The notes under the pieces: model-generated
The model's database searches: none
Told to the model about the DNA's origin: nothing
What the model saw: only the letters and a program-made list of their open reading frames with translations
Made by a program: the position numbers and the translations under genes
Shown: piece by piece, positions 60,086 to 60,162 of the stretch
How the letters are laid out: every line of letters begins with the position of its first letter
Numbering within the stretch: the stretch's first letter is position 1
Assembly (NCBI RefSeq): GCF_003334815.1
Contig: NZ_QOWO01000014.1
DNA from: Escherichia coli
Lineage (GTDB): Bacteria > Pseudomonadota > Gammaproteobacteria > Enterobacterales > Enterobacteriaceae
Direction: 5' to 3' (one strand)
Length of the DNA stretch: 64,000 nucleotides

Positions 60086-60162
60086 CGCGGGGTGGAGCAG
60101 CCTGGTAGCTCGTCGGGCTCATAACCCGAAGGTCGTCGGTTCAAATCCGGCCCCCGCAACCA
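60086..60162 (+). tRNA. metZ: Initiator tRNA-fMet (anticodon CAU), single copy
   Basis: CGCGGGGTGGAGCAGCCTGGTAGCTCGTCGGGCTCATAACCCGAAGGTCGTCGGTTCAAATCCGGCCCCCGCAACCA matches E. coli tRNA-fMet1; encoded CCA end. Confidence 0.97.

Follow-up and report, generated by a model that had tools for sequence, protein, structure and literature searches.

The mltA-amiC interval of the window

The stretch of Escherichia coli DNA analysed here, referred to below as the window, is 64 kb long and contains a single tRNA gene, tRNA-Met(CAT) at 60086-60162 on the plus strand according to ARAGORN, which lies between mltA and amiC and is followed directly by an intrinsic terminator. This arrangement had been proposed in a first-pass annotation and is confirmed by ARAGORN, Rfam, the list of open reading frames (ORFs) and a terminator scan. 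The features of the interval are as follows.

58781..59878, minus strand: mltA (murein transglycosylase A), the upstream flank, with the limits of the 1098-nt coding sequence of K-12 and nine other genomes
60036..60042, plus strand: A-tract directly upstream of the putative -35 hexamer, 7 A long here and 8 A long in almost every other E. coli
60045..60072, plus strand: putative metZ-type promoter, with -35 TTGCAT (60045-60050), a 16-nt spacer and -10 TATAGT (60067-60072)
60084..60166, plus strand: 83-bp stretch (GA, the tRNA, ATTA) present exactly in K-12 copies 1 and 3
60086..60162, plus strand: tRNA-fMet1 gene (initiator, anticodon CAT, CCA encoded), from ARAGORN, Rfam and identity to K-12
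60169..60195, plus strand: intrinsic terminator, hairpin GAACACCC-TAAC-GGGTGTTT followed by a T-run, from the terminator scan
60236..61489, minus strand: amiC (N-acetylmuramoyl-L-alanine amidase), the downstream flank, from the ORF list and the annotation of aligned relatives

The mltA reading frame, taken from its first possible start in the ORF list, extends over 58781..60082, and the annotated coding sequence is shorter. Between the tRNA gene and amiC the window holds no genomic island.

The Rfam tRNA model matches 60086-60159 at 61.4 bits, where the gathering score is 29, and the 77-nt gene is 100% identical to each of the K-12 copies metZ, metW and metV. Both ARAGORN and the Rfam match support a cloverleaf with anticodon CAU, cat standing at position 35. 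The acceptor stem has CGCGGGG on its 5' side and CCCCGCA, followed by ACCA, on its 3' side, so that positions 2-7 pair with 71-66, the C1 x A72 mismatch is present, and the CCA end is encoded in the gene. The anticodon arm, TCGGG-CTCATAA-CCCGA, has its stem closed by three G-C pairs, a hallmark of initiator tRNAs (PMC3017606). Position 46, in the variable loop AGGTC, is a G, which assigns the gene to the fMet1 isoform, as the tRNA-fMet2 encoded by K-12 metY differs by A46 (bioRxiv 10.64898/2026.04.16.719103).

The hairpin part of the terminator (60169-60188) lies directly 3' of the tRNA, and the terminator is the same as the sequence that follows metV in K-12. Upstream, the putative promoter is read from the sequence and from its identity to K-12: a scan for consensus promoters found no site above its thresholds, TTGCAT matching the -35 consensus at only three of six positions. 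The -10 hexamer is followed by a G+C-rich discriminator, GCGCATCC, and promoter and discriminator together span 60045-60080. Relative to the presumed transcription start, the A-tract would lie at about -43 to -37. Stable-RNA promoters often carry an A-rich upstream element at such a position. The change from eight to seven A is expected to have little effect, because six A beside the -35 hexamer stay in place. The metZWV operon of K-12 is subject to stringent (ppGpp) down-regulation (PMC3017606). The one-copy arrangement as a whole consists of the leader end GCGCATCCACGGA, the tRNA and the trailer start ATTATTGAACACCC.

Comparison with the metZWV operon of K-12

In K-12 MG1655, three annotated tRNA-Met genes stand between mltA and amiC at start-to-start distances of 110 and 110 bp, which bears out the earlier statement of three tandem copies with a period of about 110 bp. 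The copies are set apart by two slightly different 33-nt spacers, CAACCAATTAAAATTTGATGAAGTAAAGCAGTACGGTGACGCGGGG or its variant ATCAAATTTGATGAAGTAAAAGCAG, and the two spacer-junction sequences are CAACCAATTAAAATTTGATGAAGTAAAGCAGTACGGTGACGCGGGG and CAACCAATCAAATTTGATGAAGTAAAAGCAGTACGGTGACGCGGGG. On alignment, exactly 220 bp, or two 110-bp units, are missing from the window, and the rest of the 400-bp interval is identical to K-12 except that the A-tract is 1 nt shorter; the comparison with a reference that had been proposed as a check thus finds the window shorter by 220 bp and one A. The leader is that of copy 1 and the trailer that of copy 3. Between mltA and amiC there are 357 bp in the window, versus 578 bp in a three-copy locus. 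The exact repeats of the array are 81-94 bp long, and the junction left where the 220 bp are missing lies somewhere within the 83-bp stretch at 60084-60166, finer placement being impossible.

The missing DNA amounts to whole units, with both end points in identical sequence and the flanks as in K-12, as in a contraction of a tandem array. The window shares with metZWV its position between mltA and amiC, the K-12 leader and promoter, and the terminator, save for the 1-nt difference in the A-tract, and lacks its three genes, 110-bp period and two 33-nt spacers, having one gene and neither spacer. The locus is a contracted, non-canonical allele of the metZWV operon. That such a state could come from recombinational collapse of the repeat or from collapse during assembly had been suggested from the outset, and the alignment supports this, a clean 220-bp loss being what either would give.

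Copy number of the array in complete genomes

The array was surveyed in 5,426 complete E. coli genomes with queries chosen so that the joining of BLAST pieces cannot inflate the counts. A 68-nt query spanning a tRNA-spacer-tRNA junction matched 5,194 of these genomes, with 10,250 junctions in total and a maximum of six per genome, and 232 genomes (4.3%) had no junction. A 157-nt query made of leader, tRNA and trailer, which is covered in one piece only by a one-copy locus (two-copy genomes reach 77%), identified 213 genomes at a coverage of at least 80% as having one copy with the K-12-type trailer. A 143-nt query made of spacer, tRNA and spacer, at the same coverage threshold of at least 80%, found 5,003 genomes with at least three copies. 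Overall, about 92% of the genomes are estimated to have at least three copies, about 3.5% two (some 191 genomes) and about 4.3% one or, rarely, none, figures that depend on the joining of BLAST pieces and may be off by a few tens of genomes. Among the other genomes without a junction are arrays of one copy followed by an island and one genome that has no tRNA at the site. By junction count, a surplus of about 53 among the 10,250 suggests a few arrays of more than three copies; two genomes with five matching places each, considered as candidate four-copy arrays, proved to hold three copies and a type VI secretion island downstream.

The first-pass annotation had allowed that reference strains might themselves carry a single copy here, which holds for a small minority (about 4%), three copies being the norm at about 92%. 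Arrays of three copies with the same two types of spacer are found in about 92% of genomes, so three is taken as the ancestral state. The single-copy state is nonetheless not unusual, and the array is a mildly unstable locus and not a fixed feature, whose contractions recur in E. coli as low-frequency, tip-of-the-tree variants.

One-copy records come from natural isolates of many sources and from laboratory derivatives of K-12 (assemblies of J53, ME8067, C3026, MG1655p, MC1061 and OV2). Two copies are recorded for DH5a, C600 and MT102 and for groups of related isolates such as four O6:H16 strains, UMNK88/UMNF18 and ZF31/ZF34. Assemblies of J53 conflict, CP028702 having one copy and CP068706, from J53-p1-pV-hybrid-1, three (with two identical spacers). 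DH10B is a derivative of MC1061; MC1061 and OV2, deposited under nearby accession numbers, have one copy each, whereas a DH10B assembly has three. Instability of the locus in laboratory stocks, occasional mis-assembly or a combination of the two would account for this. Assemblies of TOP10, XL1-Blue, Stbl4 and BL21 derivatives, also with nearby accessions, show the spacer order spacer-1/spacer-1, unlike the spacer-1/spacer-2 of K-12.

The region downstream of the array varies as well. In many other E. coli, a genomic island and not amiC follows the last tRNA-fMet copy, the island either starting with phosphoglycerate dehydrogenase and KpsF/GutQ or encoding type VI secretion (tssB). In the complete ST648 genome NZ_CP008697.1, no tRNA is annotated from mltA to the island genes, and the match to the window ends one base before the tRNA. 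The best match to the initiator tRNA lies about 520 kb away, and the array as a whole seems to be absent or relocated.

Close relatives of the window and private changes of its clone

The window falls in a shallow, K-12-like group, and its full 64 kb was compared with four genomes.

52F4: 3 copies; 10 differences; four derived alleles in common with the window (10582, 41354, 61082 and 61943)
ECCTRSRTH03: 1 copy; 17 differences; no derived SNP in common with STK78-E or the window
STK78-E: 1 copy; 18 differences; no derived SNP in common with ECCTRSRTH03 or the window
ETEC1734 (seven-A tract): 3 copies; 20 differences

A draft, GCA_001749285.1, is the same as the window over 57.9-64 kb except for the A-tract and has three copies. 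Rankings vary along the window: the best matches to positions 1-25000 include two one-copy genomes, with six other near-identical genomes having three copies, and different strains rank first for positions 25001-50000. Because the nearest relative, 52F4, has three copies, the contraction is, as judged from these alignments, private to the window's clone, irrespective of whether a cell or an assembler produced it.

The seven-A tract is the sole indel in the 64 kb relative to the close relatives aligned (ECCTRSRTH03, STK78-E and 52F4). Its exact sequence occurs in 19 of 5,161 matching genomes, and all eight of those sampled have three tRNA copies; no complete genome was found to combine it with a single copy. 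As a candidate lineage marker it was rejected, ETEC1734 being close to the window only in the right half and lacking its ArgA A75T substitution, and it looks recurrent, not the mark of a clade.

The window has several other changes. In yqcE, an MFS transporter gene (13292-14569, plus strand), a private G-to-T change at 13901 turns codon 204 into a stop (E204*); the gene is intact in all four compared relatives, and the gene call on the matching draft contig is a shortened product. Private missense changes are RelA M113T (position 26014; relA at 24117-26351, minus strand) and YgcE G181S (15136), and five private SNPs of the window cluster in 13.9-26 kb. The exact RelA M113T protein was found in only seven contigs of a large gene index; SRR3823859 is one of the carriers. 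ArgA A75T, at 61943 (argA at 61721-63052, plus strand), departs from the common allele and is also found in 52F4; its occurrence in contigs of several backgrounds (51 index blocks) makes it moderately common. For the one-copy genomes, look-ups of the MltA and CsdA variants gave only one place each.

Origin of the single copy

The explanation that we favour, at about an even chance, is a genuine deletion in the clone that reduced metZWV from three 110-bp units to one. Unequal recombination and replication slippage are well established for short tandem repeats. Here, the identical tRNA copies would misalign, through unequal recombination between sister chromosomes or slippage during replication, and the misalignment would remove exactly two units, leaving one tRNA-fMet1 gene between the first copy's promoter and leader and the last copy's terminator. 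Support comes from the window being K-12 minus exactly two units of 110 bp with the flanks unchanged, and from the variation of the array over the 5,426 complete genomes. The two-copy sets of related isolates fit inherited, and hence real, contractions, several of these sets being from one project. Moreover, private changes that include the yqcE nonsense mutation and relA M113T indicate that the lineage has fixed mutations of its own.

A further argument concerns the way in which the window was assembled. Its contig runs about 119-121 nt into the multicopy element IS150 before ending, which suggests an assembly k-mer of about 120, above the 81-94 bp of the array repeats. With such a k-mer, a de Bruijn graph assembler would be expected to connect the leader with the tRNA and the trailer only where that junction is present in reads, a hint drawn from one contig end.

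Against this stands the possibility, to which we give somewhat less than an even chance, that the isolate has three copies and that a short-read assembler, or a scaffolding or gap-closing step, walked from leader through tRNA to trailer and dropped two spacer loops. Positions 14117-36351 of the window are 100% identical, at an offset of 44, to 14161-36395 of CBDBYT010000011.1, a contig of 106,887 bp in the draft GCA_965212685.1. A fragmented draft is thus the very probable source of the window, whose sequence, being identical to part of a draft contig, probably rests on short reads. CBDBYT010000011.1 starts 44 nt further inside IS150 than the window does. Drafts do falter at this place: the tRNA of GCA_005396265.1 is interrupted midway by a scaffold gap of 75 N (2330-2404), four Logan contigs break off 26-30 nt inside the 3' end of the tRNA, and among contigs that span the array one copy was found once and three copies twice. 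Further points on the same side are the three copies of the nearest relatives, with no other assembly backing a single copy in the clone because both 52F4 and GCA_001749285.1 have three; the lack of a complete genome with both the seven-A tract and one copy; and the discordant assemblies of J53 and of MC1061 and OV2 relative to DH10B. The J53 conflict lowers the prior for a real deletion, since some one-copy calls may be artefacts even in genomes described as complete, and with about 92% of genomes having three copies, a collapse rate of a few percent would rival the real frequency of about 4%.

Assembly collapse has, on the other hand, to contend with exact repeats that are shorter than ordinary Illumina reads, with the k-mer hinted at by the contig end, at which a collapsed path would need real supporting k-mers, and with a contig that is unbroken and, apart from the A-tract, free of indels relative to its relatives over 64 kb. 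In addition, the one-copy state exists in finished assemblies, in about 4% of complete genomes. The balance that we strike between genuine deletion and collapse reflects a real frequency of at most about 4%, a collapse rate that is probably small acting on the 92% of genomes with three copies, and the weight given to the k-mer hint.

A more elaborate reading of genuine deletion is very unlikely. RelA is the ppGpp synthetase. In this reading, the contraction would be real and would belong to a concerted adjustment of translation initiation and of stringent control, made up of the array loss, the seven-A tract at a ppGpp-sensitive promoter and RelA M113T. A standing polymorphism of initiator tRNA dosage (copy numbers other than three in about 8% of genomes) would then exist in natural E. 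coli, maintained by frequent misalignment of the repeats against weak selection. The seven-A tract, the array contraction and the missense change in relA coincide as private changes in one clone, but the numbers behind this coincidence are far too small to argue selection.

Scarcely tenable is an inherited single copy, common to a sub-lineage (or ancestral) that would unite the window with ECCTRSRTH03 and STK78-E. These two one-copy genomes are among the best matches to the first 25 kb, and the three have in common an IS150 insertion by cysH and the same CRISPR array. Over 64 kb, however, no derived SNP is common to the two, or to either of them and the window; the three-copy 52F4 is closer (10 differences versus 17 and 18) and has four derived alleles in common with the window; the IS150 junction, present in 536 genomes that include three-copy strains, defines no narrow clade; and the prevalence of three copies with the same spacer types (about 92%) makes three ancestral. 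The single copy as a clade mark is accordingly rejected on the 64-kb SNP table. As to the IS150 end itself, it occupies positions 1-77 of the window (…GGGTGCAGTACA), inserted beside cysH; its junction at the window start was tried as a narrow marker and discarded, and the insertion is an old one, because the same junction is found in 536 complete genomes that include REL606 and ATCC 8739. The CRISPR array (16713-17107) lies between queE and ygcE and has the spacer content of ECCTRSRTH03, STK78-E and 52F4, and the array of ETEC1734 lacks one spacer of the window (differences at 16864-16894).

Initiator tRNA dosage

If the contraction is a genuine deletion and an intact metY is present elsewhere in the genome, outside the window, the initiator tRNA genes would drop from four to two and the tRNA-fMet pool would be roughly halved, since initiator tRNA level tracks gene number, so that a clone with a real single copy would make about half the usual initiator tRNA. 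Any cost in fast growth or in start-site fidelity would be mild at most. Published studies bear out the premise of the first-pass annotation that the dosage of initiator tRNA is important (PMC3017606; PMC11480407). The level of tRNA-fMet follows gene copy number (PMC3017606), loss of metZWV brings cold sensitivity and the starting of translation by non-initiator tRNAs (PMC3017606; PMC7949028), and a systematic deletion study found that deleting metZWV impairs growth under some conditions (PMC11480407). Published work links lower initiator tRNA to slower initiation, looser start-site fidelity and, when all three genes are lost, cold sensitivity.

The census is useful when tRNA gene counts are compared between strains. 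The copy number of this array is unreliable in drafts and inconsistent between finished assemblies of one laboratory strain, and a tRNA gene count taken from an assembly needs read support before it is given a biological reading.

Comparison with known arrays

The K-12 metZWV operon and the window have in common their chromosomal position, leader, putative promoter, tRNA sequence and terminator, and differ in gene number (three versus one), in the two 33-nt spacers, both present in K-12, and in the A-tract (8 A versus 7 A). Other contracted arrays resemble the window in the loss of whole 110-bp units between identical flanks, as seen in ECCTRSRTH03, STK78-E and J53 CP028702, each with one copy, and in DH5a CP076470 and the O6:H16 strains, with two. 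Relative to the window, these and the other one- and two-copy genomes are independent events or artefacts; none has the seven-A tract, and the window's nearest relative has three copies.

This tandem array was already known to vary in copy number. In fmt mutants of Salmonella typhimurium, the tandem metZ-metW genes were amplified under selection, according to PMC2859245, which cites Nilsson et al. (2006). The homologous array there, like that of the window, changes copy number, with effects on tRNA supply and fitness; the Salmonella case is a selected expansion to high copy, whereas the window presents a contraction to one that is seen in an assembly only. The engineered metZWV deletions (PMC3017606; PMC11480407) are alike in having a lowered dosage of initiator tRNA genes, but those strains lose all three genes, whereas the window keeps one with an intact promoter and terminator, and its phenotype would be expected to be milder than that of the metZWV deletions.
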